In this document: piece by piece, positions 5,354 to 30,067 of the stretch | Layout: the number at the start of each line of letters is the position of its first letter | How positions within the stretch are numbered: position 1 is the first letter of the stretch | Source: Candidatus Cloacimonadota bacterium | GTDB taxonomy: Bacteria; Muiribacteriota; UBA6191 | Direction: 5' to 3' | DNA length: 64,000 nucleotides | NCBI GenBank assembly: GCA_019454875.1 | Contig: JACFNL010000008.1 | Location: 1,567 to 65,566, forward strand | Made by a program: the position numbers and the translations under genes | Notes under the pieces: generated by a model | Seen by the model: the letters and a program-made list of their open reading frames with translations, nothing else | What the model was told of the DNA's origin: nothing | Databases searched by the model: none

Positions 5354-6031
5354 ATGCTGAATCTAGTCACCGATGAAGACAAATCCGTGTCATTAATGAG
5401 TCTTAGTGAATTGCTGGCATGGGAAAACAGAATGTTTTATCTAAATCAGACCTTGAGTTACCCTTTGTATCTCAAAGAGGTGACACAGTATCTACGACAG
5501 GTTTTAGCCGAAGACAAATTCAGTTTTCTTGAAGCCTGTCTGAAACAAAGACCCAGAAAAATTGCTGTGTATCCCGGTTCCTTTGACCCCTTTCACAAGG
5601 GACATTTAAGCATTTTATTAAAGGCCGAGGCCCTGTTTGACAAGGTAGTGATTGCCGTTGGAATCAATCCGCAAAAGATGGCTTCAGAAGCTGACTTTAG
5701 AGTGCAGAACCTCAAGGAGATTTTAAAGGATCGGGAAGTACTGGGTTATCAGGGTTACCTCACTGATTTTTTGGCTACCCTTCAATATGAAACCACAATC
5801 ATTCGGGGACTTAGAAATGGTTATGATCTGGAATATGAGTTAAACCAGTTAAGATTTATTGAGGATATGAGCCAAAAGGATATCAACCTGTGTTTTATTC
5901 CCTGCGATCGTGAGTTTTCCTATCTTTCGAGCACAGCTTTACGCAATATGCAAAAAATCGCCGGGGAAAAGGAAAAACTCTACCTGCCTAAATCATTTAG
6001 AGACAAGGGCATCAGGGAAAAAATTTCGTAA
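5354..6031 (+). CDS. coaD: phosphopantetheine adenylyltransferase with ~70-aa N-terminal extension
   Basis: VYPGSFDPFHKGHLSIL (T/HxGH nucleotidyltransferase motif), VIAVGINPQK, IIRGLRNGYDLEYE, YLSSTALRNM all match CoaD signatures. The core is preceded by an extra ~70 residues. Confidence 0.75.
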   Translation: MLNLVTDEDKSVSLMSLSELLAWENRMFYLNQTLSYPLYLKEVTQYLRQVLAEDKFSFLEACLKQRPRKIAVYPGSFDPFHKGHLSILLKAEALFDKVVIAVGINPQKMASEADFRVQNLKEILKDREVLGYQGYLTDFLATLQYETTIIRGLRNGYDLEYELNQLRFIEDMSQKDINLCFIPCDREFSYLSSTALRNMQKIAGEKEKLYLPKSFRDKGIREKIS

Positions 6032-6522
6032 CTTCTTTGGCTTACTTGGCCACGATAGTACCCTAATCCCGTTCTGGTGCGGATTTTACTGCCAAAGCAG
6101 CCCAACAGATAAAGGCTAAGCTCGTTTTCACTATCAGCCTCGGCAAGAATCCTGGATTTAGTGTTTAAAAGAAGTGTCCTTAAACTACGATTCATGTACC
6201 CCTGTCCTAAAAAGTCTGAAAATGTCATAAACTCAAGCCAGAGATCCTCAGTATCCTGATGAAGTATCAGCCAGGTTGCAAGTCCCTGAGTGGTGTCCCA
6301 GACCAGAGTTGGATTTTCTTTAAGGTATGTACTCAAAACATCCTTTAAACTCATCTGCCTCGCAGTGGGTAAATACTGATCAATATGGGGTGAATTTTTA
6401 AGTGCCTCAAGCAGTGGATTCAGATCCTCAGATCTTACTGGTCTTAAACCAGATTGGGGAAAATTTATGGGGTTGATGGTGTGATTTTTCCTGAATTGAT
6501 CTACAATTTGCATCCATGTCAT
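5980..6522 (-). CDS. GNAT-family acetyltransferase-like protein (180 aa)
   Basis: N-terminal RPVRSEDLNPLLE and LGQGYMNRSLRTLL resemble GNAT motifs; overlaps the coaD 3' end by ~50 bp (true stop/start uncertain). Confidence 0.4.
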   Translation of the reverse strand: MTWMQIVDQFRKNHTINPINFPQSGLRPVRSEDLNPLLEALKNSPHIDQYLPTARQMSLKDVLSTYLKENPTLVWDTTQGLATWLILHQDTEDLWLEFMTFSDFLGQGYMNRSLRTLLLNTKSRILAEADSENELSLYLLGCFGSKIRTRTGLGYYRGQVSQRSYEIFSLMPLSLNDLGR

Positions 6523-10803: not shown

Positions 10804-12077
10804 AATACATCCATAAAAGCAGAGACGGAAAATACCGCCTTTCCTGCTCCAACAGGCCCATAACCTATAGGTTCAGGCAATTGATACTTGCGAAATGTGT
10901 CGCGAAACTCCTGTAGAAGTCTACAAAAATACAGTAAGGGCGGAGCAGGCTGGGGGCCTAATTTTGCATGGGGTTCGGGACACCATGAGGTAAATCGAGG
11001 CATAATTCCTTTGGACATAAAAAACTCAAGCCCGGCTTTAGTTGAAGAAATTGCTTCCTCAACATCGGAATAGCCGTAGTTCTGATTCATCTCCACACCG
11101 GCTACAAAATTTGGAATGACACACTCAGGGCCAAAAACCTCAGCCGAATCTACAATCCTTGCAATCCATTCATCTCGGCCAATAACTCTGGTTTTTCCCG
11201 GACAAATCAGAGGAAAAAGTTTGGGATCCCATACCTCATAGTTTGGGTGATAGATCCGAACCCCGCTGTCTTTAAGAAGTTTACAGTCATCTCGGGTAAA
11301 GGCCTGAACTACAGCCTTGATTATCCAGCGATCTGAAAACTGTTCCTGAATGGCTTTTGCATAACGGGCATAAAAGGACACCTCTCCCTCACCCCGCAGA
11401 TTTTCAATGATGGAACCCCCGGTAATGGTCAGAGCCTTGGCTACCGTGTCCTCTTCCTTGATATACAATAGTGCTTCCAGAATTTCGGCTTCAGACTTGA
11501 CTGCTGTATAAGGTCGGCCCGCTTTTCTCTGCTGCTCATAATTGCGGTTCAAGTCACAGAACTGGCACTGTTCTTCACGATTAAAATACTGACACATGCG
11601 ATATACAGTCAGATAAATCAGATAACCCCATTCAATGACCGGGGCCACTTCACCTAAAGCCTTGCCATTGGACATTTGCCTTTTGTAATAAGCCGGAACC
11701 GGGTGGTACAAAACCTCGGAAATTTCTTCCTCCTCACAATAGAGGCGAAGCTGTCCCTCCTGTAAGCGAACCTGCCAGGGTGAATTTGGATTCACTCTTA
11801 CGGAAACAATGGTTGGCAAAAGATCACGGGAACCACCGCGAAACTGAATTTCCTCGGGAGCCCTGAGATGTTCCTCCTGCTGCATCTCAGCAATGGGAAT
11901 CAAATCAAAGGAGAATATGAAATAATCCTTAGGTTTATAACCAGAAGCAATTCTTAAGGAGTCTGGACTAAAGGACAGGCCTTCTCTTAGGATATCCTGT
12001 TTAAATACAGCTTCTATCGGAAGATCAGAAAATTGATCGGCTAGTTTGGATACGGATTCAAAATGTTTAAGCTTCAT
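10800..12077 (-). CDS. Cys-rich hypothetical protein, possible non-canonical radical-SAM/Fe-S enzyme (425 aa)
   Basis: Cys triad C162-x8-C171-x2-C174 (MCQYFNREEQCQFC) followed ~45 aa later by TITGGSIIEN (GGE-like SAM motif). 4-bp overlap with the PfaD start. Confidence 0.4.
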   Translation of the reverse strand: MKLKHFESVSKLADQFSDLPIEAVFKQDILREGLSFSPDSLRIASGYKPKDYFIFSFDLIPIAEMQQEEHLRAPEEIQFRGGSRDLLPTIVSVRVNPNSPWQVRLQEGQLRLYCEEEEISEVLYHPVPAYYKRQMSNGKALGEVAPVIEWGYLIYLTVYRMCQYFNREEQCQFCDLNRNYEQQRKAGRPYTAVKSEAEILEALLYIKEEDTVAKALTITGGSIIENLRGEGEVSFYARYAKAIQEQFSDRWIIKAVVQAFTRDDCKLLKDSGVRIYHPNYEVWDPKLFPLICPGKTRVIGRDEWIARIVDSAEVFGPECVIPNFVAGVEMNQNYGYSDVEEAISSTKAGLEFFMSKGIMPRFTSWCPEPHAKLGPQPAPPLLYFCRLLQEFRDTFRKYQLPEPIGYGPVGAGKAVFSVSAFMDVL

Positions 12078-12696
12078 TATGCAATTGAAAATGTCGGGCC
12101 ACTGCTGGCGGAATATTTAAAAACACGATTTTTGTATCAATCTGCCGCTCTTTTATAAAACCTTCTAATATTTGATTAACCTGAGTTCCGGTAGTTGACC
12201 CAATAAGTCTTGTAACAAGACTTCTGAGCTTTCGTACCCCAAGATATTCAAAATAACTAAGATACCCTTTTGGTTTTAAAAGCCGCATATAACTTTGCAA
12301 AATTGATTGCACTACTGGTGGTTCAAAATTGTTTAAGGGAAGTCCAGAAACGATATAATCAAAAGAAAGCCCTTCTTTAAGATGTTCCAGATAACAGCGT
12401 TTGATGTGAACCGTAACCCCAGTTAATGACTGTTTCCAAACAGTCTGGCGTTTTTCCTCTAAAATTTCACAAAAACGGGGATTTGCCTCTACCAGCCACA
12501 ATTCATCTCCTGGCACAAGATTCATGATGATCCGATTTGTCACCGCACCGGTTCCAGGTCCAACTTCAAGAATTGCCTTATTACCCTGATGTTTTTTTAA
12601 ACGCCAGATCAAGGCATCAGCCAGAAACTGTGATGATGGAAAGAGGGAGCCTACTTCTTGGCGATTCTGCCCAAACTGTCTGATAAAATCCAGCAA
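12067..12696 (-). CDS. class I SAM-dependent methyltransferase (209 aa)
   Basis: Motif I ILEVGPGTGAVT; overall small-MTase fold pattern. Confidence 0.65.
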   Translation of the reverse strand: MLDFIRQFGQNRQEVGSLFPSSQFLADALIWRLKKHQGNKAILEVGPGTGAVTNRIIMNLVPGDELWLVEANPRFCEILEEKRQTVWKQSLTGVTVHIKRCYLEHLKEGLSFDYIVSGLPLNNFEPPVVQSILQSYMRLLKPKGYLSYFEYLGVRKLRSLVTRLIGSTTGTQVNQILEGFIKERQIDTKIVFLNIPPAVARHFQLHNEA

Positions 12697-18205: not shown

Positions 18206-18967
18206 ATGCTTCAGGGAAAAAAAGGAATCATATTCGGGATTGCTAATGACAAAAGTATTGCCTGGGGTTGTGCCCGCTCCATCAAAGCCCTTGGGGGCGA
18301 GTTCGGTATTACCTATGCCGGGGACATAATGGAAAAACGGGTTCGACCATTAGGTGAAGAGATCGGGGCCGGTTTTATTGAAAACTGTGACCTGACCAAA
18401 GAAGATGATATTGCCCGGGTGATGGAAAAAGCCTCACAAACCTATGGAAAAATTGATTTTTTAATTCATTCCGTGGCTTATGCCAGTAAAGAAGCCCTGT
18501 CCAACCCTGATATTTCTTCGGTGAGTCTTGAGGCCTTCAGTGAAGCCCTGACTATTTCTGCCTGGACATTTATAGCAATGGCCAAACATGCAAAACCCAT
18601 CCTGAATCCTGGCTCAAGCCTAGTAACAATGACCTATTACGGTGCACAGCGGGCCATACAGAACTATGGACTGATGGGAGTAGCTAAAGCGGCTCTTGAA
18701 GCTGAGGTTCGTTATCTTGCCAATGAATTTGGAGCCACCGATACAAGGGTAAATGCCATTTCTGCAGGAGCAATCCGTACCCTTGCTGCCTCAGGTATTA
18801 AGGGGTTTCGTGACATGCAGACCATAGCTGCTGAAAAATCGGCTATCAAAAGGGCTGTTACCTCTGAGGAAGTAGGAGATACTGCCGCATTTCTAGTCGG
18901 GCCATTAAGCACAGGTATTACTGGCCAGATTTTGTTTGTGGATATGGGTTACAGTGCCAATGGCTGA
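18206..18967 (+). CDS. fabI: enoyl-ACP reductase (NADH), FabI
   Basis: MLQGKKGIIFGIANDKSIAWGCARS N-terminus is typical of FabI. Start moved from 18095 to the ATG at 18206, which is preceded by AAGGGAGAG. Confidence 0.85.
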   Translation: MLQGKKGIIFGIANDKSIAWGCARSIKALGGEFGITYAGDIMEKRVRPLGEEIGAGFIENCDLTKEDDIARVMEKASQTYGKIDFLIHSVAYASKEALSNPDISSVSLEAFSEALTISAWTFIAMAKHAKPILNPGSSLVTMTYYGAQRAIQNYGLMGVAKAALEAEVRYLANEFGATDTRVNAISAGAIRTLAASGIKGFRDMQTIAAEKSAIKRAVTSEEVGDTAAFLVGPLSTGITGQILFVDMGYSANG

Positions 18968-19734
18968 ATGTTTTTTAAAATCTCTGTGTAGACTCTTTTA
19001 GGAGAGGGAATACAATAGAGGCAGAATTCTTCGGAGGGGGCCACTGTGTTTCTTGACTGGGAAAACCCCACACTGCCCCCTGCTGCCACCGGACCGATAC
19101 CAGCTCCAGCAGCCATAGACGCATTGGAACCCATGTTTCCCATTCCTAACTGCGAAGCAGTGATAGGAACTATGGTTCCAAACCCAAAAAACCGGCCCAA
19201 AAGGCTTCTTTGTAACACCAGATCCTGAATACGATTGATAAAAAATGTTCGTTCGTTGCCACCTAAAATTCCCGAGCGAATGATAATTCTTAAATTGGTA
19301 ATAATATAACGGGTATGGTTCAGGCTTAATACGGTAAACAAAATCCCGAGTATACCAATAAGAATCAAAAGTCTGAATTCCAGATCAGCCACTTCGGGCA
19401 AAGCCGTGGCACTCCCATATACACTAAAAAGACAGATACAGTGAATCAGCAATACTTTTGGTCTAATTTTAATCAGGGACAGAATCAGACTGTGAATAAA
19501 CAATAGTCCATAGGCCAGAACAACCCGGGGCAAGGAGTTTAAAAATTTCAATACCGGGGTAAGCACTGGAAAAAAGCTCATTGCCCCTTCTATAAACAGG
19601 GATAGTTTGTCCTCTGCCAGCCAAAACAAAAGCCCAAGAACCACATAAGGAACAAAACCCCAGGTTTCTTTGAAAGACAAAAACCAATGTGGATGTAAAT
19701 CAAAAAGTACAGTTTCTGATTCCAGGGTTTGCAT
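18949..19734 (-). CDS. polytopic membrane protein, hypothetical (261 aa)
   Basis: Several hydrophobic helices; Gly/Ala-rich C-terminal tail. Last gene of the glycan array; convergent overlap with the fabI stop. Confidence 0.45.
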   Translation of the reverse strand: MQTLESETVLFDLHPHWFLSFKETWGFVPYVVLGLLFWLAEDKLSLFIEGAMSFFPVLTPVLKFLNSLPRVVLAYGLLFIHSLILSLIKIRPKVLLIHCICLFSVYGSATALPEVADLEFRLLILIGILGILFTVLSLNHTRYIITNLRIIIRSGILGGNERTFFINRIQDLVLQRSLLGRFFGFGTIVPITASQLGMGNMGSNASMAAGAGIGPVAAGGSVGFSQSRNTVAPSEEFCLYCIPSPKRVYTEILKNIQPLAL

Positions 19735-20949
19735 CTATGTCCTTGGCGGGCTTGACTCAGTGGATACTGAATCTACGGAAGTAATAGATTCCATGGATGG
19801 AATGGAATCTGTCAAAGGCTTAAATTTAGAAAAATATTCGGATTGATTCAAATCTTCAAACTCAATTTGATGTCCATTTAATATCCATAAGCGGCTCTCA
19901 AGTACATCGGACTCTGAACTAACAAAAAAGTTGATTTTCTTTTTGTATTCAGGCACTGGAATATACTCCCCTGCCCCAGCCATGGTTCTGAATGAAATTT
20001 TTTCCCTGTCCATATCTCCAAATGCCATCAGAAGTTTCACAAAAAGTTCAACCGGTATGGTTGTGTCCACATCCTTGTACAAATCAAGAATAAAACCAGG
20101 CATTCGGCCCAAAACTTTCAGGGAATCCCAGCCTATGGTTTTTAAGGATTTTACCCGAGCTAAAAAGGCTGCAATAAACTTTTTCTGCCTCTCAATCCGT
20201 CCCAGATCTCCTAGTCCATCACTGCGGTAACGGACATATCCTTCGGCATTCTCTCCATTTAATACCTGAAGCCCCTTGTCTATATTTATGGTTAAGCCCT
20301 GAGCTTTATCAGTGTATTTCAGATCCTTTTCCACATCCACTTCAACCCCACCCATGGCATCAATGATCTTACGAAAAATAACCAGATCAATCACCACGGT
20401 ATGATCGACTGGAATTCGTAGAAACTCCTGAATGGAATGAGTCAAAAGTTCAAGCCCTCCCCAGCGAAAGGCATGGGATACCTTATCCATGACTAAATTG
20501 CCTTTATGGGCAGTCAAAACCCTTGTATCCCTTGGAAAACTCAGAATACGGATTGTACCCGTATCAATCTGCATGTGGCATAAAATAATTGTATCCGCTC
20601 TTCCATCATCCTCTTTGCCTAAAATCAGGATGGTATAACTGGTTTTTGGTTTTGTTTTTGGTATCTCAACCTCCGGTGAACTTGGGGAGGCTTTCATGAT
20701 GGGCTGTGGCAAAGACCGAATTGCAGCAACCTCATTCTCGGAGCGGCTGACTAAAACATTGATCCACAAAAAAACTGTCGCCATCATCAGAATCAAAAAC
20801 ATCAGAATGCGATTTCTGTAAGGCTTACGAGTACTGGCTGATGGTGTTTTTTTGAGATCCACGAGATCAAACTGGGATGGTCTATGGGCAATTCCCGGAA
20901 AATCAGGAACAAGATACAGAAGTTTTTTAAAGACTCCCTTAAGCTTCAT
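19735..20949 (-). CDS. LCP (LytR-CpsA-Psr) family glycopolymer phosphotransferase
   Basis: N-terminal TM anchor, RADTIILCHMQ, SFPRDTRV, MDKVSHAF, GGVEVDV, GRIERQKKFIAAFL are LCP-domain hallmarks. Confidence 0.8.
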   Translation of the reverse strand: MKLKGVFKKLLYLVPDFPGIAHRPSQFDLVDLKKTPSASTRKPYRNRILMFLILMMATVFLWINVLVSRSENEVAAIRSLPQPIMKASPSSPEVEIPKTKPKTSYTILILGKEDDGRADTIILCHMQIDTGTIRILSFPRDTRVLTAHKGNLVMDKVSHAFRWGGLELLTHSIQEFLRIPVDHTVVIDLVIFRKIIDAMGGVEVDVEKDLKYTDKAQGLTINIDKGLQVLNGENAEGYVRYRSDGLGDLGRIERQKKFIAAFLARVKSLKTIGWDSLKVLGRMPGFILDLYKDVDTTIPVELFVKLLMAFGDMDREKISFRTMAGAGEYIPVPEYKKKINFFVSSESDVLESRLWILNGHQIEFEDLNQSEYFSKFKPLTDSIPSMESITSVDSVSTESSPPRT

Positions 20950-21523
20950 ACAATCTGGAGTTAGCCGTACAAAGCCAGTTCCAGCATCCTAGACTGTCGT
21001 AATGCAAAGGCTGCCCCTTCTGCATGGTGTACATAAGTTTAGCCTGTAAAATTTTTTTCATGGCAGAACCAATATCCTGTAAAGCCAGCTTCATATCCAT
21101 CGGGTCATAAAACTCCCTGCCCGGTTCAATCTGATCTGCTACATACAACACCATATCGGACAAACTCATGTTTTCCCTTCCAGTTGTATGCCAGCGAATT
21201 GGTTCTGCCCATTCTTCTGGTAGATTAAATTCATGAATGGCTAGATAATGAGCTGTTTTTGCATGCCACAATGCAGGAGATTTTAAAGTCATAAGATCAG
21301 GTTTGACTTCCTCAAGAAGTTTTAACTGCTGTGGTTTAGGCAATTCCTTGGTTCTGTCATGTAATATAGCCGCCATTTTAATTGGCAATGGATCCAGATC
21401 ATAGTTTTTGGCCAGAGTTACAGCAGTGTCAACAACTCCAAGGATATGCAAAAATCGAGGTGCAGAAACCGAGTTTTTTACTACCTCAAGGGCCTGGTTA
21501 CAGCGATTTTCCCAGTTCATCAT
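20939..21523 (-). CDS. yqeK: HD-domain phosphohydrolase, YqeK-like
   Basis: HILGVVDTAVTLAKNYDLDPLPIKMAAILHDRTKE matches the YqeK H...HD motif layout; 194 aa. Confidence 0.65.
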   Translation of the reverse strand: MMNWENRCNQALEVVKNSVSAPRFLHILGVVDTAVTLAKNYDLDPLPIKMAAILHDRTKELPKPQQLKLLEEVKPDLMTLKSPALWHAKTAHYLAIHEFNLPEEWAEPIRWHTTGRENMSLSDMVLYVADQIEPGREFYDPMDMKLALQDIGSAMKKILQAKLMYTMQKGQPLHYDSLGCWNWLCTANSRLYEA

Positions 21524-22493
21524 TTAACAGCATCTCTAAAATCTGTGCTCTGTTCATCAGAGGAACACAGTCCGATTTATACACATTCTCAGGTACCTGC
21601 TTAGGTCTTTGCTGAAAACCAACCACCAGCATATCCTCCATCTCATGACACATGGAGCGTTCATTCTCAAACAGGAGTTCCTCATGCATTTTTTCGCCTT
21701 CACGAACCCCAACCACATCAATAGGCACGGACAACAAACCGCGAGCCCTGGCAAATTCTGTGTTGATGACAGACACCAGATCTCCCATACGGACCGAGGG
21801 CATTTTCATGATAAAAATTTCGCCCCGCGAGGCCAGTTCAGCACCCTTTAACACAAGGCTCACAGCCCTTTGCATGGTCATCAGAAACCGGGTCATATCC
21901 GGATGGGTCAGGGTCAGGGGATTTCCCTGCTTTAACTGCTCAAAAAATAAAGGCAGAACGGAACCTCTTGTTCCCAGCACATTTCCGAAGCGGACACAGG
22001 AAAAAACGGTGCGGCGGCTACCCTTGTAACGGTGGGCTGTACGCATCAGCTTTTCGGCCAGAAGTTTGGTGGTTCCCATGGTATTGACCGGATTTACAAC
22101 CTTATCGGTTGATATCAATACTACTTTTTCCACATTCATCTTCATGGCTACTTCAATCACATTCTGGGTGCCAATCACATTGGTTTTGACAGCTTCAAAC
22201 GGGTTGTCCTCACAGGAAGGTACCTGTTTTAAGGCAGCAGCATTAAACACATAGTCCGCACTTTCCATAGCCATAGTCAATCGTTCCTTGTCACGGATAT
22301 CCCCTAACAAAAAGCGAATTCTGGGATTATGGCCCAAGGACTGGGCAAGTTTATACTGCTTGTATTCATCCCGGGACAAAACCCGGACTGAAGCAGGGTT
22401 CTGATCAAGTATGTCCCTTACCAGAGAACCACCAATTGAGCCGGTGCCCCCTGTTACCAGGATATTTTTCCCTTTGAGAAAATCAGATCCCAT
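21498..22493 (-). CDS. pseB: UDP-N-acetylglucosamine 4,6-dehydratase (inverting), PseB/FlaA1-like
   Basis: ILVTGGTGSIGGSL Rossmann motif, STDKVVNPVNTMGTTK, FGNVLGTRGSVLPLF; 331 aa as for PseB. Confidence 0.8.
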   Translation of the reverse strand: MGSDFLKGKNILVTGGTGSIGGSLVRDILDQNPASVRVLSRDEYKQYKLAQSLGHNPRIRFLLGDIRDKERLTMAMESADYVFNAAALKQVPSCEDNPFEAVKTNVIGTQNVIEVAMKMNVEKVVLISTDKVVNPVNTMGTTKLLAEKLMRTAHRYKGSRRTVFSCVRFGNVLGTRGSVLPLFFEQLKQGNPLTLTHPDMTRFLMTMQRAVSLVLKGAELASRGEIFIMKMPSVRMGDLVSVINTEFARARGLLSVPIDVVGVREGEKMHEELLFENERSMCHEMEDMLVVGFQQRPKQVPENVYKSDCVPLMNRAQILEMLLNDELGKSL

Positions 22494-22522
22494 TCTACTC
22501 CTCGTTCAAAAAACATGCCATT

Positions 22523-23671
22523 CTAACGGTTTATGGACATTCTGCCAACCATAGCCTTAGGAGGATAAGCAGGATTTTTACCGGTAGTTTTCATTATTCC
22601 ACCATTGCGGGCAGAATCATAGATAGACTCAATTAACTCAAGGGTACGAATTCCATCCCGCACAGATGCCAGGGATTCCACCTGCCCCTGTATGCCCAAA
22701 ACCAGATGATTCAGTCTTTCAAGATACGGGTTTTTAGCTTTAGGCAACAAAATGGGCATTTCTTCCAGAAAATACCCACCCTTTTGTCGTCTTAACCAGA
22801 CGGACTGAGAATTTCCATGCAGAATTCTGGCCTTCTCAAAACCCAGCTCCAGGGCAAAATGAAAATATTTTCTTTGTCCACCACACAAAAAACTGACGGT
22901 AGGTCCATCTTTGAAATACATACTGCCAAGGCAGGTATCTTCTGTATGAACCCTTTGTGAGGATCGGGTACAGATTGCCTGAACCCATCCAGGATCCCCT
23001 AGCAGAAATAAAACCAGATCTACCAGATGGGTGCCGTCATGAAGCATGGGGCCACCAAACTGAAGGTTGGCTTTTCGTTTTCCTTTACCCTCAGCAAAAG
23101 ATCCACAGTTAATCTCTATGCGTATGTGTTGTAATGCTCCAAATTTTCTGGATTGAATCAGCCTCTTAAAATACTGAAACTCCGTATAAAATCTGCGATC
23201 ATGACAGACCACAATAAAAGCCTTCATCTCATCACAAAGTGACTGAATCAACAAGGCTTCCCCAACATTCATTCCTACAGGCTTTTCCAAAAGAATTCCC
23301 AAAATAGTGGGATACAAACTCTGATATTTGGCCAGGGTTTTTATCACTTCAAGGTGTGAAGAAGAAGAGACAGCTACAGATACCACCGAGGGTCTGGTTG
23401 ATATCAGAAATTCCAGCAGGTTTTGGGATGCGATCTGGCTCTTTGGGTAATTTTTTAAAAATTCCTCAGCCGAATCAGGATCCTGATCATAACCACCAAC
23501 CAGTTCAAAATCAGGATGAGCTTCAAATGAACCTGCATGGGTACAGGGAGAGGCACGAAACCTGTCTCCTTCCAGAGAAAACCCAATCCGGCCCAGACCA
23601 ATAACTACGGACCTATACAAGGGAATACCCAATCCCGGCTTCCAGATCATCCAAAAAAAATACTTCTGCAT
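22523..23671 (-). CDS. Gfo/Idh/MocA-family NAD(P) oxidoreductase
   Basis: VVIGLGRIGFS dinucleotide fold at the N-terminus, 382 aa; true start may be downstream of the annotated ATG (overlaps the upstream gene). Confidence 0.55.
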   Translation of the reverse strand: MQKYFFWMIWKPGLGIPLYRSVVIGLGRIGFSLEGDRFRASPCTHAGSFEAHPDFELVGGYDQDPDSAEEFLKNYPKSQIASQNLLEFLISTRPSVVSVAVSSSSHLEVIKTLAKYQSLYPTILGILLEKPVGMNVGEALLIQSLCDEMKAFIVVCHDRRFYTEFQYFKRLIQSRKFGALQHIRIEINCGSFAEGKGKRKANLQFGGPMLHDGTHLVDLVLFLLGDPGWVQAICTRSSQRVHTEDTCLGSMYFKDGPTVSFLCGGQRKYFHFALELGFEKARILHGNSQSVWLRRQKGGYFLEEMPILLPKAKNPYLERLNHLVLGIQGQVESLASVRDGIRTLELIESIYDSARNGGIMKTTGKNPAYPPKAMVGRMSINR

Positions 23672-24584
23672 CCAGCTTAAGCATTTTTAATCCATCACGA
23701 ATTTGTGGTTCATAATTCATGCCAAGTCCTAATGCCCATTGCAAAAGATAGGTGGCAAAGTCTGCTCCTGAGGCAATTGTTAAGGGAATTCCACCTGAGA
23801 ATCGGGGATTAACCTCAAGAAAATAAAACTCATTCTCAAACTCAATACACTGAACATTCCATGGACCAGCAAGATTAAAATCTGGCGCAACATTTTTGAT
23901 AAGGTCAATCAGTTTGGTATTCTGAACTACAACTCCCACATCGGACACCCCGGAACGGACTTTTTTTCTTAGTCTTGAAACCAGGGCAACAGGCTTTTTG
24001 GCATCATCACAAAAGACATCAACCGTATACTCTGGGCCTGCCATAAATTTTTGTAAAAATGGGTGTTTCATCCTGGGAAGATTGGCTATCAAATCCTGAT
24101 TGGAGTTTAAAAGGTACTGATTGACGGATCCGAATCCAAAATCTTCTTTGAGGATCAGGGGGTAGTCAGAAACATCTTTTAAATCATCAAACACCTTAGG
24201 TACCTTAAGCCCTAATTTCTCAAATGCCGCGCTTCCAAGACTTTTTTGTAACCACGGTCTGTATTGAGCTGGATGGGAACATAATAGTCTGGCGGGAATT
24301 TCATCTGCGCGCTGCGACAGGTACAGAAGATCCAGATCATTACCTGGCAGAATATGGGTTATCTCATACTTTTGTATCAGGCAAAGAATTGCCAAATGGT
24401 GTTCATCACTAAAGGTTCTGGGAACTATTTCAAAAGCATCACAAAAAAACAGGGAAGGTGTATCCAATTCAATTTCTGTGCCTACTAAAAACAGAGATAC
24501 ATCCAGATTTTTTGCAGCACGACGCAGGTGGCGAATCAGACTTACTCTGCGCCCTGTACTTAAAACAAGGATTCGCATTTTCAT
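23613..24584 (-). CDS. ATP-grasp domain enzyme (carboxylate-amine ligase-like)
   Basis: MKMRILVLSTGRRVSLIRHL N-terminus and EYTVDVF...NPRFSGG C-terminal region typical of ATP-grasp enzymes found in sugar-modification clusters. Confidence 0.6.
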   Translation of the reverse strand: MKMRILVLSTGRRVSLIRHLRRAAKNLDVSLFLVGTEIELDTPSLFFCDAFEIVPRTFSDEHHLAILCLIQKYEITHILPGNDLDLLYLSQRADEIPARLLCSHPAQYRPWLQKSLGSAAFEKLGLKVPKVFDDLKDVSDYPLILKEDFGFGSVNQYLLNSNQDLIANLPRMKHPFLQKFMAGPEYTVDVFCDDAKKPVALVSRLRKKVRSGVSDVGVVVQNTKLIDLIKNVAPDFNLAGPWNVQCIEFENEFYFLEVNPRFSGGIPLTIASGADFATYLLQWALGLGMNYEPQIRDGLKMLKLDAEVFFLDDLEAGIGYSLV

Positions 24585-25510
24585 ACCTTTGGTCTTGGAT
24601 GATCCTCTGGCTGAAATGGAATATCACAGACGGCACAAAGCCCATGGCAGGACTTAAAACCATGATTTTTTTTCAGGTTTTCCTTGCGTTTGACTAAATA
24701 GGTTCTCAAATCAAGCATGGCCTGTGAATTCCAGGCAGCCATGACACCCTGTTCACTATTGCCCAAGGGATATTTGCCATCATAGTCCACACAACAGGGA
24801 ACAAAAGTTCCATCCCATAAAACTGCCATCGATCGCCAGGGATAGGAGCATACGGAATAATGATCCTCAAGATTCACATCCTTGAGTGAGTTTAAATATC
24901 CAGTCCAGTTTCTCCAGACCTTAACGGCAACTTCATCTGGGTTTAAGGCTTCCATTCTGGCCTTGAATTCAGGAAATGCGTCCCGGGTTTCCTCCATATC
25001 AATAATTTCAATCGAAATTCTGGTCTGAGACTGCATGGACTTTTTTATGGCAATAGCCGACTGTATATTTTTGAGTGTGGTTTCGTAATTACCCTTGACC
25101 CTCACACTCTCATAGATTTCTTTACTGATTCCTTCAAAGGAGATGGTGAGATAATCCAGTCCTGATTCAAACAACATTCTGGCCTTGTCCTCAAACAGAA
25201 AGGAAGCATTGGTATTCAGACGAATCTGAAGACCGTGCTCTTTGCCAAGCTTTAACATCTGTTCCAAGCCCTTATGCATCAAAGACTCACCTAAAAAAAA
25301 CAGATTGATCTTTTTGACCCCTGATTTGGCCGCATCCTCTATCAGTTTTTCATAAACTTCAAGGGACATAAATCCCTTTTTGCGGGTCTGATCCTTTTGA
25401 GGACAGAATACACAGGCTAAATTGCAGTGGTTGGTTGGCTCAATAAAAAGAGTGTAGGGCCCATCTGGCAGATACACTTCCCGGTTATGATACGCTTCTA
25501 TGTTTCGCAT
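24581..25510 (-). CDS. radical SAM protein with C-terminal SPASM-like Cys cluster
   Basis: Canonical CNLACVFC (CxxxCxxC) motif, FLGESLM (GGE-like); C-terminal CCVDYDG...CHGLCAVCD. Confidence 0.75.
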   Translation of the reverse strand: MRNIEAYHNREVYLPDGPYTLFIEPTNHCNLACVFCPQKDQTRKKGFMSLEVYEKLIEDAAKSGVKKINLFFLGESLMHKGLEQMLKLGKEHGLQIRLNTNASFLFEDKARMLFESGLDYLTISFEGISKEIYESVRVKGNYETTLKNIQSAIAIKKSMQSQTRISIEIIDMEETRDAFPEFKARMEALNPDEVAVKVWRNWTGYLNSLKDVNLEDHYSVCSYPWRSMAVLWDGTFVPCCVDYDGKYPLGNSEQGVMAAWNSQAMLDLRTYLVKRKENLKKNHGFKSCHGLCAVCDIPFQPEDHPRPKV

Positions 25511-26477
25511 GTTCTAATACCTGCCTTAAGATGGCATAAGCCCCCTGGCCAGCCTCATATTGTGAAAATCGCCTCTGGAATTCTACACGCATTGCATCAT
25601 GATTTTGCATAAAAATATGCTCTTTTAAACACATTTTGTAAAAGTTGTCCTGAATTCCAAGATTCACAGCCAGACCTTTGTCGCTTAGCTCTTTGATTAC
25701 TTGGGCCTGTTCTTCATGCTGGGCTATCAGAAGTGGCACAGAACCACATTTAAGAACTTCATAAGCCGTAATACCCCCACTAGCAATCACAAAATCCGAG
25801 CCACGAAAATAAGGTCTGAGATCGGTTACTCCTGCCCGAAAATCAAACATTGGATATAAAGACTTCAAAGCAGTCTGTCTATCCAGGGAAAAACCAGGTC
25901 CCAAAAATATAAGAAACCGATTTACATCAACGGGGAGTGAAACCAGATATGGCAAAAGAATTTCAGTCAGACCAAAAGGATCTGAGCCTCCAAACGACAC
26001 GGGAACTTTTCCTGGTTCCAGTACAAGAGGTTTTTCTTCCTCATCATCAAACACAAACCACTTGATTCCGATCCATTCCTGACATTTTCCAATCCTTTGT
26101 TCCCGAGCACTGACCCCAAGAAGGGTACTGACAAAATGCAAATCAAACTCTTTGCGCATTTCCCCTAGTTCATCCAGGCCAACAACCAGGCAAAAGGGAT
26201 CCAATGCATTAAGATACTGCCGGTTAAATCCATGATCGTCCACAATCAGAATCCGGTTGTTCTGGCCCAGATGCTTAAGATCAGAACTTGTCGGAATATA
26301 TCGATATTCAAATTTTGAATGGGTCAGTTCTGGGTTTCTGAACAAAAATGTTACTTTACCACCTAAAGACTCAAGCTTTTTGGCCAAAATCTCACAGCGG
26401 CGCAGATGCCCATATCCAACGGATTCCGAAAAGTCTGTGACAAAAAACCACTCAAAATCAGAAAACTCAGGCTTCAA
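25485..26477 (-). CDS. pseG: PseG-like UDP-sugar hydrolase (GT28 C-terminal-domain family)
   Basis: FVTDFSESVGYGHLRRCEILAKKL N-terminal motif typical of PseG; 330 aa. Confidence 0.6.
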   Translation of the reverse strand: MKPEFSDFEWFFVTDFSESVGYGHLRRCEILAKKLESLGGKVTFLFRNPELTHSKFEYRYIPTSSDLKHLGQNNRILIVDDHGFNRQYLNALDPFCLVVGLDELGEMRKEFDLHFVSTLLGVSAREQRIGKCQEWIGIKWFVFDDEEEKPLVLEPGKVPVSFGGSDPFGLTEILLPYLVSLPVDVNRFLIFLGPGFSLDRQTALKSLYPMFDFRAGVTDLRPYFRGSDFVIASGGITAYEVLKCGSVPLLIAQHEEQAQVIKELSDKGLAVNLGIQDNFYKMCLKEHIFMQNHDAMRVEFQRRFSQYEAGQGAYAILRQVLEHAKHRSVS

Positions 26478-27210
26478 ACAGCCCCTTCTGCTTAACAGAC
26501 TGATTCATCTCAAACAACTGAGGATTTTTAATATAAAGTTCTCTTAACGAGGGTAGTGTAATAGAAGCCGGCTCTAAATTAAGAGCTTCAGAAACCTGGT
26601 TCACCAGCTTAAGATCCAAATCAGAGTCCACGGTCAGTCTGAGATGGGCAATATCCTGATAACCAGCATCCAAGGGTACACGAATTGCTGTACTACCTTC
26701 TTCATAAAGGCCAGGGGTGACATGCTCAACCCAGTGGGCAGGCAGAGTCGGGCGGGAAAACATGCGTAAAAATGTGCTGCGACGAAATACCTCAAATCCA
26801 CAACCTAAAGGCAGTCCCGTGGGGCAGAGGTAATCACCACCCTCATCCTCTAGCCTTTTGATTGCATCCGACAAAAAACACTTCTGGGTCATTGGATTAT
26901 CCGCTGTGATGCGAATCAACCACTGAGCATCAGATACAAGAGCTGCATGATGAAATCTTGAAATGACCTGGGACTCTGAGCCCCGAAAAAGATTAAACCC
27001 CAAACGGTTTACCTCGGAAGCTACAGGATCATCCGATCGGCCCAGAACACCTAAAACCAGAGTCTGATCCGCGTTCAGACCAAAAAGAACCTGTGCCAGA
27101 AGAGTACTGCTACCAGCTCTCATCAATACCTTGCCGGGTAACCGGGAAGCCAGATAACGAGCCTGTACCAGAACCAGAACATCATTTCTTGAACTAAAAT
27201 CTGTTTCCAT
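26467..27210 (-). CDS. cytidylyltransferase, SpsF/PseF (CMP-nonulosonate synthetase) family
   Basis: VLVQARYLASRLPGKVL matches the R-x-G-S-x-R-L-P-x-K motif of acylneuraminate-type cytidylyltransferases. Confidence 0.6.
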   Translation of the reverse strand: METDFSSRNDVLVLVQARYLASRLPGKVLMRAGSSTLLAQVLFGLNADQTLVLGVLGRSDDPVASEVNRLGFNLFRGSESQVISRFHHAALVSDAQWLIRITADNPMTQKCFLSDAIKRLEDEGGDYLCPTGLPLGCGFEVFRRSTFLRMFSRPTLPAHWVEHVTPGLYEEGSTAIRVPLDAGYQDIAHLRLTVDSDLDLKLVNQVSEALNLEPASITLPSLRELYIKNPQLFEMNQSVKQKGLFEA

Positions 27211-27213
27211 GGT

Positions 27214-28089
27214 CTAAGGGTAACTTAAAGTGTTGAGAATCTCCAGTCGCTCTGGAAAAGAAGGGTTTCTTCCGTACCCCGAAAGCAAAAATACCAGTCG
27301 CCCTTCCGCGCGTAGGTACACCGTGTCCTCAATTTTGCGTGAAAACAGGCGATCGACCGCTGCGGTGGCTATGCCAAATGGACGCACTGGCATTTGCTTT
27401 TCAATGGTATCGGCAAATTCCTCTCTTAAAACAATATGTAATTTTTTTCCGGATAAAAACTCCACTAGAAGTCCGTCTAATGATGGGGATTCAGCAAACT
27501 GAAATGGGGTTGGCACAGAAGTTTTGACCCGAATCAACCAGAAAAATTCCTGGCTTTTCCATATGGGAATATCCAGGTTTTTGGAAACCTCCTGGGCGAT
27601 TCTTTCTGTATAATCACTATTTTTGGATAAAACCATCAGGTACGGTGGAAATAGTACTAACTCACCAAAGGATGTCACAAAAGCAGTGGGCACCTCGGAA
27701 TCTATCTGGACTTTTACCTCAGCTATTGTACTAAGACAACTCTGCCATGATTCAAACTGTATGAGGGCTGCGCTGATGATTGCACTGGATTCGCGGGAAC
27801 GGTATTCCGAAGCAATGGCCGAAACAAAACCCGTAAGTTTGGGGAAAGGCAGCATGGCCTGTAGTCTGATGGAATCAAGTAGTATGTCTCGACCAAACAG
27901 ATAAAGATCCCTGCTTTTACTCAATTCAAAGGGAGAGCGGGTGGAAGCGGACACAGCACTTTCACTAACATCTCCTGGATGCAAAATGGTTAGTGGTTTG
28001 TTGGAAATCAGAGTGCGATTGGCGTACCAGAAAAACAGACCGGCTATGGCCAGAATCCCAATGGCGAAGCCAAAAATAATCCGTTTCAC
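27214..28089 (-). CDS. membrane-anchored hypothetical protein (291 aa)
   Basis: Single N-terminal TM (IIFGFAIGILAIAGLFFWY); tightly packed between the rhomboid gene and the cytidylyltransferase. Confidence 0.45.
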   Translation of the reverse strand: MKRIIFGFAIGILAIAGLFFWYANRTLISNKPLTILHPGDVSESAVSASTRSPFELSKSRDLYLFGRDILLDSIRLQAMLPFPKLTGFVSAIASEYRSRESSAIISAALIQFESWQSCLSTIAEVKVQIDSEVPTAFVTSFGELVLFPPYLMVLSKNSDYTERIAQEVSKNLDIPIWKSQEFFWLIRVKTSVPTPFQFAESPSLDGLLVEFLSGKKLHIVLREEFADTIEKQMPVRPFGIATAAVDRLFSRKIEDTVYLRAEGRLVFLLSGYGRNPSFPERLEILNTLSYP

Positions 28090-29495
28090 TGGACCACCCT
28101 GCGTAACCCAAATCTCCCAATTAATGCTGCTTCCAGATTTTGCAGTTCCTTCAATTTCAGGGAAGCCTTTTCTTTTCGGTTTTCCAATGGCAGCTCACGA
28201 AGGCCCCACACCTCTTTGAGTTTATCCAAAAAACTTAAAAAGGCCTGTCTGTCCTCTTTGTCTTCAGGTATCCATTCCTCATGATATGGAAATTCCGATG
28301 GTTTCAGATTAGGGGTATCCGACATCAGTTCAGCCTCGAGCCTAATCAGAATCGGGGCGATGGATGTATTAATGATGTCTAAAAGTACCTTTTGTTCTTT
28401 CTGCCTAATCTGTACCTGATGAAAGACTTTCTGGGCATTTCGGTTCACTTCTTCATGTAGAACAATAAGGCCAATACTTAGAAAGACAAATACCATTCCC
28501 TTACGGAATTTTCCGGCCCTGCCCAAAAACAGAAACCCCAGTACAAATCCCGATATCAGACCACCTACATGAGACCAGATATCGATCTGAGGTATTAGAA
28601 GTGGCAAAAAACCATTCACGGCCAGGACGGTCCATAACGACTGCAACAGGCGTTTTCCCTGATATTCATGAAAAGGACCATATACGGAGAGGTTGCTCAT
28701 CAAAAAACTTAAAGAGCAGCCAACCAGACCAAACACCACTCCTGAGGCCCCAATTGAATTTAATGGTTTAGCATAAAAGCTCAAAGAGCATAAGGCACCA
28801 CAATATCCAGATATCAATAAAACCAGAATCATCTGTAAGGCACTTAAAAATCTCTCAATCAATGCTCCAAGAAAAAACAGGGAGATTGCATTCAAGAGAA
28901 AATGAACCATACCGGAATGTAAAAATATGCCCCCGAGCATGAGTGAAAGTTCATTGCTATGCCAGTTGTAGAGATTGATCCCGTAAACTTCCGAGGCATT
29001 TGTCCCCAATGTACTTAAATAACCCTGCCAGGCAAAGACTAGAGACAGGATTAAAAAATAACAATTGGTGATAAAAAGTTTCACAGGAGGCCAGGGTTTG
29101 CGTACCTTAGCGGACAATGCCGCATCAAGAACTGTACCTACCTGTTCGTCATCCCAGTTCCAGGAAATCTTGTGGATGTCTGCCTTACCCTTTTGATGAC
29201 GGGTACTGACAGCAGTACTTAGCTCCGTACATTCAAGATGCCAGACCACCAGACTCACAGGTACAGCCCTCTGTCTGAGGTGTTCCTGAATTTTCTGATC
29301 GAGCAAGGCAAAATCACAGGACTGCCTTAATCTGGTCAGATAAACCACACCAAGCTGCCATCCATCCGGCCTTGGCTGAAACAAAAACCAGGCAGAACCA
29401 TTATCCCCCATGTCCACTTTCCGGTATACTTCCAGAGAAGTTCCAAGCAAAATTGAGAGGTTCTGTGCGCTATTCAAGTCAGCTGATATATACAT
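28086..29495 (-). CDS. rhomboid-family intramembrane serine protease with ~190-aa N-terminal soluble domain
   Basis: GASGVVFGLVG (GxSG catalytic Ser), downstream H in a TM helix (WSHVGGLISG); six or seven TM helices in the C-terminal half. Confidence 0.7.
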   Translation of the reverse strand: MYISADLNSAQNLSILLGTSLEVYRKVDMGDNGSAWFLFQPRPDGWQLGVVYLTRLRQSCDFALLDQKIQEHLRQRAVPVSLVVWHLECTELSTAVSTRHQKGKADIHKISWNWDDEQVGTVLDAALSAKVRKPWPPVKLFITNCYFLILSLVFAWQGYLSTLGTNASEVYGINLYNWHSNELSLMLGGIFLHSGMVHFLLNAISLFFLGALIERFLSALQMILVLLISGYCGALCSLSFYAKPLNSIGASGVVFGLVGCSLSFLMSNLSVYGPFHEYQGKRLLQSLWTVLAVNGFLPLLIPQIDIWSHVGGLISGFVLGFLFLGRAGKFRKGMVFVFLSIGLIVLHEEVNRNAQKVFHQVQIRQKEQKVLLDIINTSIAPILIRLEAELMSDTPNLKPSEFPYHEEWIPEDKEDRQAFLSFLDKLKEVWGLRELPLENRKEKASLKLKELQNLEAALIGRFGLRRVVQ

Positions 29496-29497
29496 GG

Positions 29498-30067
29498 GCT
29501 ATGATTTCCGTCTTTTCCTGCTCCTGGTCTAATCCAACCATACCCAGCAATTTTTCTGCCCTTTACACCCGTCACAAGGTATCACAAATCCTCTTTGATC
29601 TTACAAGCCATTTTCAACTCAACTCCCTGATCATCGGGCTTGAAGATCGAACCACCAGTCTTGGTTTTCACAACTGCGACTTTTCCGAATGTATGAAAAA
29701 TGCCTTACATACCAATAAGTTTGTTTCCATTCCTGCCCATAGTTTTTTGGCCCTGATTCCTGTAGAAACATTCCGTCCGTCTTTGCTGGACAATATAGAG
29801 AAAATTAACAAGAAGGTTCAATCAAGTTCACCTAAAACAATTGATTTGGTTGCCAGACAAACATCCCTGCCAGTACTCATTGGAAGCCTGTTGAAAGTAT
29901 TGGAGATCAAGGCCGGCATATCTGCTAAAGTACAGGGGTCAGTAAGCGTATACCTTAAATCTGCCGATGCTTTGGAGGTATTGGCCTGGCTATTTATGCT
30001 GCATAGTCTAGAAATTCGTAACAGTCACGGAGTATTTGTAGTCGCCCCAGACTACTTTACCCCTTAA
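29498..30067 (+). CDS. hypothetical protein (~190 aa)
   Basis: ORF 29372..30067, trimmed to the internal ATG just past the convergent rhomboid gene; no motifs recognised. Confidence 0.3.
   Translation, partial: AMISVFSCSWSNPTIPSNFSALYTRHKVSQILFDLTSHFQLNSLIIGLEDRTTSLGFHNCDFSECMKNALHTNKFVSIPAHSFLALIPVETFRPSLLDNIEKINKKVQSSSPKTIDLVARQTSLPVLIGSLLKVLEIKAGISAKVQGSVSVYLKSADALEVLAWLFMLHSLEIRNSHGVFVVAPDYFTP

Follow-up and report, generated by a model that had tools for sequence, protein, structure and literature searches.

Which sugar is built by a run of nucleotide-sugar genes that leads directly into a cell wall glycan ligase, and does the ligase act on that sugar? The question is raised by positions 18949-29495 of a 64,000-nucleotide stretch of contig JACFNL010000008.1 (assembly GCA_019454875.1, Candidatus Cloacimonadota bacterium; positions 1,567 to 65,566 of the forward strand), hereafter the window. 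Here, genes resembling parts of the pseudaminic acid pathway are followed by genes for a YqeK-family HD phosphohydrolase, a LytR-CpsA-Psr (LCP) glycopolymer phosphotransferase and a bPH_2-domain membrane protein. The reading that we favor, at a probability of roughly 0.42, is that the cluster encodes an aminotransferase-free, fusaminic-like cytidine monophosphate (CMP)-sugar pathway, which would draw on a synthase encoded elsewhere in the genome and would be co-transcribed with a wall-glycan ligase module. The observations that carry this reading are the gene content of the cluster, the family assignments of its products, its conservation, its block structure and its affinity to nonulosonic acid (NulO) islands.

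A nine-gene unit conserved across one uncultured clade

The open reading frame (ORF) map of 18949-29495 shows eleven ORFs on the minus strand, with no other long ORF in competition, and junctions in transcription order of -4, +3, -11, -26, -4, -59, +29, -26, -11 and 0 bp. As the ORF starts in the window are longest-ORF calls, these gene overlaps may be overstated. The map and the junction lengths bear out the eleven tightly packed co-directional genes described in the initial annotation of this locus, and Pfam and NCBIfam scans returned the domains listed there, the "polytopic membrane protein" of that list being the bPH_2-domain protein.

Relatives were gathered by context look-ups together with one genome scan and one metagenome scan, and their gene neighborhoods, with flanks retrieved up to 10 kb, are referred to by L numbers. 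The radical S-adenosylmethionine (SAM) protein of the window has 28 relatives at E <= 1e-20, and an exact-sequence look-up of it returned no record. Identity to this protein falls abruptly, from ~48-60% inside a single uncultured clade to <40% everywhere else, and ~20 loci of that clade carry the cluster or parts of it. Two metagenome-assembled genomes (MAGs) of the clade are labeled Candidatus Cloacimonadota by NCBI, and the taxonomy of the clade rests on these labels; its diderm status rests on a single outer-membrane marker in the clade loci, a TonB-dependent receptor gene in L085.

Most clade loci keep a nine-gene order that runs from the cytidylyltransferase gene to the bPH_2 gene (18949-27210 in the window), even where protein identities are low (down to 30-36% for the cytidylyltransferase, the PseG-like protein and the bPH_2 protein, 36-46% for YqeK and 48% for the radical SAM protein). 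In L003/L004 the nine-gene order is intact at identities of 48% (radical SAM), 36% (cytidylyltransferase), 35% (PseG-like), 39% (YqeK), 41% (LCP) and 34% (bPH_2), and neither flank is related to its counterpart in the window. As the order persists in relatives with different flanks, the association of these genes is more than chance. Junctions in the relatives overlap or abut throughout, including those on either side of the YqeK gene, which always lies between the dehydratase and LCP genes. The Gfo/Idh/MocA oxidoreductase gene adjoins the dehydratase gene in every locus that has both, and the bPH_2 gene follows the LCP gene in the full-cluster types, with L011 as a locus in which it was not detected in the first screen.

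The variants of the cluster reveal how it is assembled. In L085, from the closest species (radical SAM identity 73%), the cytidylyltransferase and PseG-like genes are absent and a Sel1-repeat gene is found instead. In L086/87 and related short contigs, only the PseG-like, radical SAM and ATP-grasp genes are present, located between threonine and pyrimidine genes (thrC and pyrB abut the trio in L086). The order in L096/97 is PseG-like, radical SAM, ATP-grasp, a gene of 3.1 kb for a 966-aa PD40/Big_5 protein, cytidylyltransferase, Gfo/Idh/MocA, dehydratase, YqeK, LCP and bPH_2. Two blocks remain unbroken across these arrangements: one of Gfo/Idh/MocA, dehydratase, YqeK, LCP and bPH_2, and one of radical SAM and ATP-grasp, which are never apart in any locus and are usually joined by the PseG-like gene. 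The cytidylyltransferase gene joins the first or the second block depending on the locus.

Further genes were observed near the cluster in these relatives. A protein of 920-970 aa with PD40 beta-propeller and Big_5 domains (Tricorn/TolB-like) is encoded upstream of the cytidylyltransferase in L001/L002/L010/L095/L099 and inside the cluster in L096/L097 (11016-13916); it may be a partner of the glycan system or one of its targets. At positions 1-2927 of L086/L087, a gene for a 738-aa LCP protein and a second gene, with an SLT (lytic transglycosylase) domain, are located 7-9 kb upstream of the trio on the same strand.

Families of the sugar enzymes

The dehydratase (21498-22493, minus strand, as are all genes of the run) is a short-form Polysacc_synt_2 protein (PF02719, 346 bits) of the PseB/CapE/Pen group of UDP-N-acetylglucosamine (UDP-GlcNAc) 4,6-dehydratases. 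CapE and PseB both catalyze 4,6-dehydration with inversion at C5. Scores fell below the equivalog cutoffs for both PseB (TIGR03589, 317.3 bits against 407.75) and FnlA (259.8 against 730), and the matches in PDB were 6bwc (281 bits), CapE (258) and FlaA1/PseB (241); 6bwc, which its depositor named CapD, we take to be Pen of Bacillus thuringiensis. The motif STDK...NTMGTTK is conserved in 6 family members and contains MxxxK, which sets CapE apart from the YxxxK of PseB (PMC3699295). The initial label of a "PseB-type" enzyme therefore stands for the wider PF02719 group and falls short for PseB itself, given the sub-cutoff score and MxxxK in place of YxxxK. MxxxK was also considered as proof of a pathway of the N-acetylfucosamine (FucNAc) type, leading to a product other than a NulO; this was dropped, as the same motif is found in the dehydratases of two NeuB clusters, L075 and L094. 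Pfam and NCBIfam scans revealed no CapF or CapG homologs in the cluster.

The Gfo/Idh/MocA oxidoreductase (22523-23671) contains three Pfam domains of that family, and its best match among solved structures is the dehydrogenase 3q2i (43 bits), which we take to be a WlbA-type sugar-nucleotide 3-dehydrogenase. It is presumed to act as a sugar keto-reductase or dehydrogenase.

The PseG-like protein (25485-26477) is divergent, as its match to the PseG model TIGR03590 spans the full length despite a score of 65.3 bits against a cutoff of 153.55, and it has no Pfam match. In a family alignment built from locus translations (the homology search alone gave 6 proteins), the motifs GxGHxxR and GGxTxYE are invariant in 8 members, and the His of the first motif is presumably the catalytic His of PseG. 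An AlphaFold2 model of moderate confidence (pLDDT, the predicted local distance difference test, 66) has a GT-B fold, for which Campylobacter jejuni PseG (3hbn) ranks 3rd among many glycosyltransferases and has the best target-normalized TM score (TMt) of the matches, 0.63. This protein is presumed to be a UDP-sugar hydrolase, and a transferase role is also allowed.

The radical SAM protein (24581-25510; Radical_SAM and SPASM domains) contains the invariant cysteines C29/C33/C36 (CX3CX2C) and C221, C239, C240, C292 and C295, the latter forming one auxiliary-cluster motif of the twitch type, with a spacing that we take to be similar to that of BtrN. BtrN was the best profile match in PDB (75 bits), followed by BlsE and DesII, and a Foldseek search with the AlphaFold2 model (pLDDT 85.8) likewise returned BtrN (4m7t) on top, with an E-value of 1.9e-12 and a TMt of 0.72. 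BtrN, the 2-deoxy-scyllo-inosamine dehydrogenase of butirosin synthesis, is a twitch-domain radical SAM enzyme, and together with BlsE and DesII it carries out redox, decarboxylation or deamination chemistry on sugars or cyclitols. The window protein is presumed to modify a sugar. In every clade locus it is encoded next to an ATP-grasp ligase (23613-24584 in the window), which was assigned to PylC-like_N and ATPgrasp_Ter by Pfam and NCBIfam.

SPASM/twitch radical SAM enzymes and ATP-grasp enzymes are common in gene clusters for ribosomally synthesized and post-translationally modified peptides (RiPPs), and the Foldseek list for the radical SAM model includes SuiB, EpeE and SkfB. In addition, the pVip models of PADLOC match the core of the radical SAM protein at 51-58 bits, as they would in a viperin-type anti-phage defense system. 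Either identity for the cluster is extremely improbable. The pVip match covers generic core residues 26-167 alone and no other gene matches PADLOC, for which reason a defense system was dropped; a RiPP system was dropped because the overlapping junctions leave no room for a precursor gene, and in L086 the trio directly abuts thrC and pyrB. BtrN is the best relative by both sequence and structure, and the neighbors are all sugar-nucleotide enzymes.

Finally, the cytidylyltransferase (26467-27210) is of the SpsF/COG1861 type (CTP_transf_3, PF02348, 46 bits against a cutoff of 22.6). Its N-terminal motif QARxxSxRLPGK, typical of SpsF, is conserved in the family; NCBIfam returned weak matches to the KdsB subfamily and none to the PseF equivalog, and the best solved-structure match was a Leptospira cytidylyltransferase (6oew, 50 bits). 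Enzymes of the CTP_transf_3 family characteristically activate 2-keto-3-deoxy sugar acids, and this one is presumed to form the CMP-sugar.

Affinity to nonulosonic acid islands

All six families of the sugar module are found in bona fide NeuB clusters. Five context types were examined for homologs of the ATP-grasp protein at 31-34% identity, and in four of them (L089, L090/91, L093 and L094) the gene comes immediately after NeuB; the fifth, L092, is an amino-sugar cluster with PglF, DegT and Bac_transf genes. The cytidylyltransferases of these islands are ~30% identical to that of the window (E 1e-15 to 1e-20), and the gene upstream of NeuB in L090, which has no Pfam match, encodes a protein 23% identical to the PseG-like protein (E 2e-7).

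The islands themselves form a recurrent flagellin-glycosylation module, seen in L089, L090/91, L093 and L094, that comprises DUF8042, in some cases DegT, a PseG-like gene of 315-360 aa without a Pfam match, in some cases HAD, and then NeuB, ATP-grasp and CTP_transf_3. It sits between flagellin genes and flbD-motAB and is apparently undescribed so far.

A complete NeuB cluster that ends with a BtrN-like radical SAM gene was observed at 2310-10927 of L075, in a Dehalococcoidaceae MAG. This cluster contains Gfo/Idh/MocA, CTP_transf_3, a short-chain dehydrogenase/reductase (SDR), NeuB, Epimerase_2, a PglD-like acetyltransferase, DegT, a dehydratase and the radical SAM gene. The dehydratase is 52% identical to that of the window and also has MxxxK, as does the dehydratase of NeuB cluster L094, and the radical SAM protein is 33% identical with the same cysteine pattern. 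L075 is thus a candidate system for finding the role of the BtrN-like radical SAM family. Judged by sequence and gene neighborhood, this evidence supports a sugar module that is NulO-related by descent and by the company it keeps.

The missing synthase, aminotransferase and acetyltransferase

Pfam and NCBIfam scans of the window ORFs with a length of ~110 aa or more revealed no NeuB/PseI synthase (PF03102), DegT-type aminotransferase or PseH-type acetyltransferase, and tblastn with NeuB probes and two DegT probes found nothing in the window or the cluster loci. The only GNAT-like ORF of the window, at 5980-6522, lies 13 kb away and is below cutoff (22.1 against 25.4). This confirms the absence of PseC, PseH and PseI from the window as initially noted. 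NeuB, aminotransferase and acetyltransferase genes are absent from every cluster locus, for NeuB and DegT with flanks of up to 10 kb in all seven arrangement variants. As there is no synthase in the cluster, a nonulosonic product is hypothetical, and from the initial proposal of a nonulosonic-type pathway there remains the part that concerns ancestry, namely that the gene families live in NulO islands. Pathway genes are demonstrably scattered, both in the clade (L085 and L086) and in the flagellin islands, which have no dehydratase within 8 kb; a synthase encoded elsewhere is for this reason plausible, though unproven.

The initial annotation had gone further in placing the oxidoreductase, ATP-grasp and radical SAM enzymes "in place of" PseC, PseH and PseI, which does not agree with clusters outside the clade, where these same families occur together with NeuB, DegT and an acetyltransferase. 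Taken literally, such a replacement would provide a route that is independent of a synthase, and we consider this improbable. In a more specific form, which we regard as a long shot, the radical SAM enzyme in the slot of NeuB would, together with the ATP-grasp enzyme, turn the free 6-deoxy-L-hexosamine into an acidic or higher-carbon sugar that can be activated with CMP, and YqeK, LCP and bPH_2 would install this sugar on diderm peptidoglycan. The gene order is suggestive in this respect, as PseG-like, NeuB and ATP-grasp genes in L089, L093 and L094 (with HAD inserted in L090 and L094) correspond to PseG-like, radical SAM and ATP-grasp genes in every cluster locus; NeuB is unlinked in every variant, and the trio persists alone in L086/87. 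Set against this order is L075, where the same radical SAM family resides beside NeuB, DegT and a PglD-like acetyltransferase. The chemistry also argues against substitution, since BtrN, BlsE and DesII, the closest characterized relatives, do not extend carbon chains, and the NeuB reaction is a polar aldol-type reaction for which we know of no radical counterpart.

A different product altogether would be a tailored 2-acetamido-2,6-dideoxy-L-hexose of the L-FucNAc, QuiNAc, PneNAc or AltNAc class, or an acidic or amide derivative of such a sugar, destined for a peptidoglycan-linked secondary wall polymer attached by LCP. For this alternative, the PseG-like protein would serve as a hydrolase or as a glycosyltransferase, with a repurposed cytidylyltransferase. 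We regard this as possible yet rather unlikely. It would fit the CapE-type MxxxK of the dehydratase and its score near that of CapE, the lack of NeuB, aminotransferase and acetyltransferase genes described above, the finding that Gfo/Idh/MocA, dehydratase, YqeK, LCP and bPH_2 form the most invariant part of the cluster, the mostly generic polysaccharide clusters in which distant members of the radical SAM family occur, and a fold search that scores glycosyltransferases as well as PseG for the PseG-like protein. The shared motif loses weight, however, with the MxxxK dehydratases of NeuB clusters, and the PseG-like protein retains the catalytic-His motif of PseG. In addition, the cytidylyltransferase, PseG-like and ATP-grasp families accompany NeuB in four independent island types, and the usual substrates of CTP_transf_3 enzymes are 2-keto-3-deoxy sugar acids.

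YqeK, LCP and bPH_2

The gene after the dehydratase (20939-21523) encodes a YqeK equivalog (TIGR00488, 117.2 bits against a cutoff of 70.15). The characterized activity of this family is symmetrical hydrolysis of diadenosine tetraphosphate (Ap4A). The protein matches 2o08 (92 bits) and 8wmy, a bis(5'-nucleosyl)-tetraphosphatase, in PDB, and the H, HD, H, H and D motifs are kept in the alignment with 2o08. The LCP gene (19735-20949; PF03816 and TIGR00350, 129 bits each), which the YqeK gene overlaps by 11 bp, encodes a protein with one N-terminal transmembrane anchor at residues 48-66. Its PDB matches are TagV/TagU at 86-89 bits, and the motifs GRADT, PRDT, RYR and GRxxRQ, which carry the Arg/Asp residues typical of TagT/U/V, are kept when it is aligned with TagV. 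From these conserved motifs, both proteins look intact and functional. The bPH_2-domain membrane protein (18949-19734; PF03703, 47 bits), with 3-4 hydrophobic segments, ends the conserved unit.

The pairing of these genes has precedent. The synteny nadD-yqeK-lytR-rsfS is conserved in almost all Firmicutes, including the diderm Negativicutes, and in Deinococcus-Thermus (Bechon et al. 2020, PMC7549365), which was overlooked in the earlier statement that YqeK normally partners NadD and not glycan genes. Similarly, LCP proteins are known in Spirochaetes, Thermotogae, Deinococcus-Thermus, Cyanobacteria, Chloroflexi and a few Bacteroidetes (Huebscher et al., PMC2632651), and an LCP in a diderm, flagged at first as unusual, is a minority trait among Gram-negatives that was already on record. 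As both have been published, the adjacency of yqeK and LCP is no novelty by itself, and the same is true of an LCP in a diderm. The initial annotation also linked the sugar genes to YqeK and LCP, and this linkage is real and conserved across the clade loci.

A CTP_transf_like gene at 5354-6031 on the plus strand was considered as a relic nadD and dropped. It encodes CoaD (TIGR01510, 102.2 bits, just under the cutoff of 103.3), lies ~15 kb from yqeK and has an N-terminal extension of ~65 residues in the longest-ORF call. In L085, a CTP_transf_like gene of 220 aa, at first likewise considered as a nadD relic, was observed 8 kb from the cluster.

Whether the two halves of the cluster work together is a question orthogonal to the identity of the product. 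The sugar genes and yqeK-LCP-bPH_2 might be functionally unrelated, with the sugar module inserted at the nadD position upstream of yqeK-lytR and merely co-transcribed with it. The conservation of yqeK-lytR across phyla without sugar genes (PMC7549365) is consistent with this, as is the occurrence of the PseG-like/radical SAM/ATP-grasp trio apart from the LCP gene, and the operon contains no glycosyltransferase, flippase or polymerase that would join the sugar to the LCP substrate. Independence is nevertheless doubtful, since every relative has overlapping or abutting dehydratase/YqeK and YqeK/LCP junctions, even at a YqeK identity of 36-46% and in varied contexts, and the L086/87 contigs with the isolated trio still carry an LCP gene and an SLT-domain gene 7-9 kb away.

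Proposed pathway

For the favored fusaminic-like pathway, we infer each chemical step, the product and the coupling to LCP from family membership and gene neighborhood. The SDR of the PseB/CapE type would convert UDP-GlcNAc into a 4-keto-6-deoxy-L sugar, as expected from its family. The Gfo/Idh/MocA enzyme would then reduce the 4-keto group without transamination, yielding a UDP-2-acetamido-2,6-dideoxy-L-hexose; if so, no aminotransferase or second acetyltransferase would be needed, and the synthase alone would be missing. The PseG-like GT-B protein, with its retained His motif, may free the sugar from UDP. In what is the weakest step of the scheme, a NeuB-type synthase acting in trans would condense this sugar with phosphoenolpyruvate into a fusaminic-like 5-acetamido-3,5,9-trideoxy-nonulosonic acid. 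Tailoring may follow through the radical SAM enzyme, by hydroxyl oxidation or epimerization, and through the ATP-grasp enzyme, by amide ligation, and the SpsF-type cytidylyltransferase would produce the CMP-sugar. The sugar would then enter an envelope glycan, and LCP would anchor this glycan, or a polymer bearing the sugar, to peptidoglycan, with YqeK and LCP as the local copy of the ancient yqeK-lytR pair.

The expected sugars have an analog. The O-chain of Fusobacterium nucleatum 25586 contains 2-acetamido-2,6-dideoxy-L-altrose and 5-acetimidoylamino-3,5,9-trideoxy-non-2-ulosonic acid (Vinogradov 2017, as cited in PMC7371886). This O-antigen contains both the hexose expected here, 6-deoxy-L-AltNAc, and the 5-N-acyl-3,5,9-trideoxy-nonulosonic acid derived from it.

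Several observations weigh against the fusaminic-like pathway. NeuB is absent within 10 kb of the cluster in all seven arrangement variants (~20 loci), and some linkage to NeuB might be expected were a synthase required. Only one of 72 distant radical SAM loci, L075, has NeuB nearby, the remaining loci being polysaccharide clusters of a generic kind, in which GT4, GT2, AsnB, B12-rSAM and Wzx-like genes are found. Both the cytidylyltransferase and the PseG-like protein score far under the PseF and PseG equivalog thresholds. The role of the ATP-grasp enzyme as an amide ligase is unclear if the sugar has no free amine. As Pfam and NCBIfam revealed no glycosyltransferase, flippase or polymerase in the operon, the link from the sugar to the LCP substrate is indirect. 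Finally, co-transcription and operon boundaries are inferred from gene packing alone, because promoter and terminator scans returned counts at shuffle level (19 against 22 and 19 against 14) and were dropped as uninformative for setting operon limits.

Flanking genes and the rest of the window

The first two genes of the run lie outside the conserved unit, because they are restricted to this strain and to L088, a 99%-identical strain, and are absent from the other cluster loci. The first (28086-29495) encodes a rhomboid-family intramembrane protease of 469 aa (PF01694, 75 bits) with ~7 hydrophobic segments, and the second (27214-28089) a 291-aa protein with one transmembrane segment (residues 4-22) and no match in Pfam, NCBIfam or PADLOC. 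The two genes overlap by 4 bp and may form a protease-substrate pair, in which the 291-aa protein is possibly the substrate of the adjoining rhomboid. On the other side, a plus-strand longest-ORF call at 29372-30067 extends ~120 bp into the 5' end of the rhomboid gene. In L088, the gene caller gives this neighbor as 188 aa, 5 bp from the rhomboid start. The start codon of the rhomboid gene, of the plus-strand neighbor or of both is probably miscalled, which leaves the cluster's promoter region poorly defined in this strain.

The neighbors of the run are housekeeping genes (fabI, gatA/gatB, glgA, sucCD, icd, dciA and an H+-PPase), and no Rfam families or tRNAs were found in the window. Recent horizontal transfer of the cluster was considered and dropped, as its GC content of 0.42-0.45 is inside the range of the window. 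At 9199-12696 on the minus strand, just upstream of glgA, a set of three genes encodes a PfaD-family enoyl reductase (TIGR02814, 665 bits), a "variant radical SAM" protein (NF045502, 187 bits) and a SAM methyltransferase; the set looks like lipid or polyketide tailoring. A tandem pair of minus-strand genes at 44775-51036 encodes two proteins of ~1000 aa that both contain HAMP and SpoIIE/PP2C phosphatase domains.

Significance

Each component of the cluster is of a known kind, and the yqeK-LCP pair has already been published. What is new is the stable fusion of this pair and bPH_2 with a sugar module of the NulO-island type in an uncultured clade of Gram-negative type, the layout that has no synthase and places a BtrN-like radical SAM gene between the PseG-like and ATP-grasp genes, and the connection of this radical SAM family to clusters of this kind. 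No link between radical SAM enzymes and nonulosonic acids was found in the open-access papers searched.

If the favored pathway is correct, a nonulosonic-type pathway would be tied to an LCP wall ligase in a Gram-negative-type lineage, which would imply a peptidoglycan-anchored acidic glycan outside monoderms, and the long-conserved, unexplained yqeK-lytR pair would gain a concrete glycan context. It would also single out two uncharacterized families that travel with NulO and glycan genes, the BtrN-like radical SAM enzymes and the NeuB-adjacent ATP-grasp enzymes. For 7-hydroxy, 9-deoxy nonulosonic acids, of which the Fusobacterium sugar is one, an aminotransferase-free route would provide candidate genes. 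Should the synthase simply be encoded elsewhere and the link to LCP be merely organizational, this would be an ordinary surface-glycan operon with an unusual layout.

Comparison with known systems

With the PseB-PseC-PseH-PseG-PseI-PseF pathway of Campylobacter and Helicobacter, and with the Pen/Pal enzymes of B. thuringiensis, the cluster shares a short-form Polysacc_synt_2 dehydratase, a PseG-like GT-B protein with the His motif and a CTP_transf_3 enzyme. Unlike the pseudaminic pathway, the window contains no PseC, PseH or PseI, its three retained enzymes are all sub-equivalog with MxxxK in the dehydratase, and radical SAM, ATP-grasp and Gfo/Idh/MocA enzymes are added. The CapE/FnlA/WbjB pathway to UDP-L-FucNAc shares MxxxK, but the window dehydratase fails the FnlA cutoff and is not accompanied by CapF or CapG.

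The sugars of F. nucleatum 25586, as given in a secondary account of their structure, are the kind of product that pathway logic would predict for a route that skips the aminotransferase and combines an inverting dehydratase, a 4-ketoreductase, a UDP hydrolase, a synthase and a cytidylyltransferase. The cluster differs in having no synthase, and the comparison is one of sugar structure, not of sequence. To our knowledge, genes for the nonulosonic sugar of this strain have not been assigned.

The flagellin islands (L089, L090/91, L093 and L094) share the local order of a PseG-like gene, a middle gene and an ATP-grasp gene, in which the middle gene is NeuB in the islands and the BtrN-like radical SAM gene in the window. 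The islands lie among flagellin and motAB genes, whereas the cluster neighbors YqeK, LCP and bPH_2, with no flagellar genes in the window. BtrN itself shares CX3CX2C and an auxiliary motif of four to five cysteines of similar spacing with the window protein, at ~18% identity in the structural alignment; its context is an aminoglycoside cluster, in contrast to the nucleotide-sugar or NulO-type cluster described here.

For the ligase module, streptococcal capsule loci offer a parallel, as cpsA (LCP) and neuBCDA are found there in one operon and a CMP-activated nonulosonic acid is incorporated into a peptidoglycan-anchored polymer. An LCP gene co-operonic with CMP-sugar genes is thus shared, whereas the streptococcal loci belong to a monoderm host and also encode an initiating transferase, glycosyltransferases, a flippase, a polymerase and NeuB, none of which is in the window operon. 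The closest counterpart of the yqeK-LCP pair is the nadD-yqeK-lytR-rsfS synteny, in which a YqeK equivalog likewise directly precedes an LCP gene, also in diderms. Unlike in that synteny, nadD and rsfS do not adjoin the pair in the window, the host clade is labeled Cloacimonadota in two MAGs, as opposed to Firmicutes or Deinococcus-Thermus, and the pair is instead joined by six sugar genes upstream and by bPH_2 downstream.

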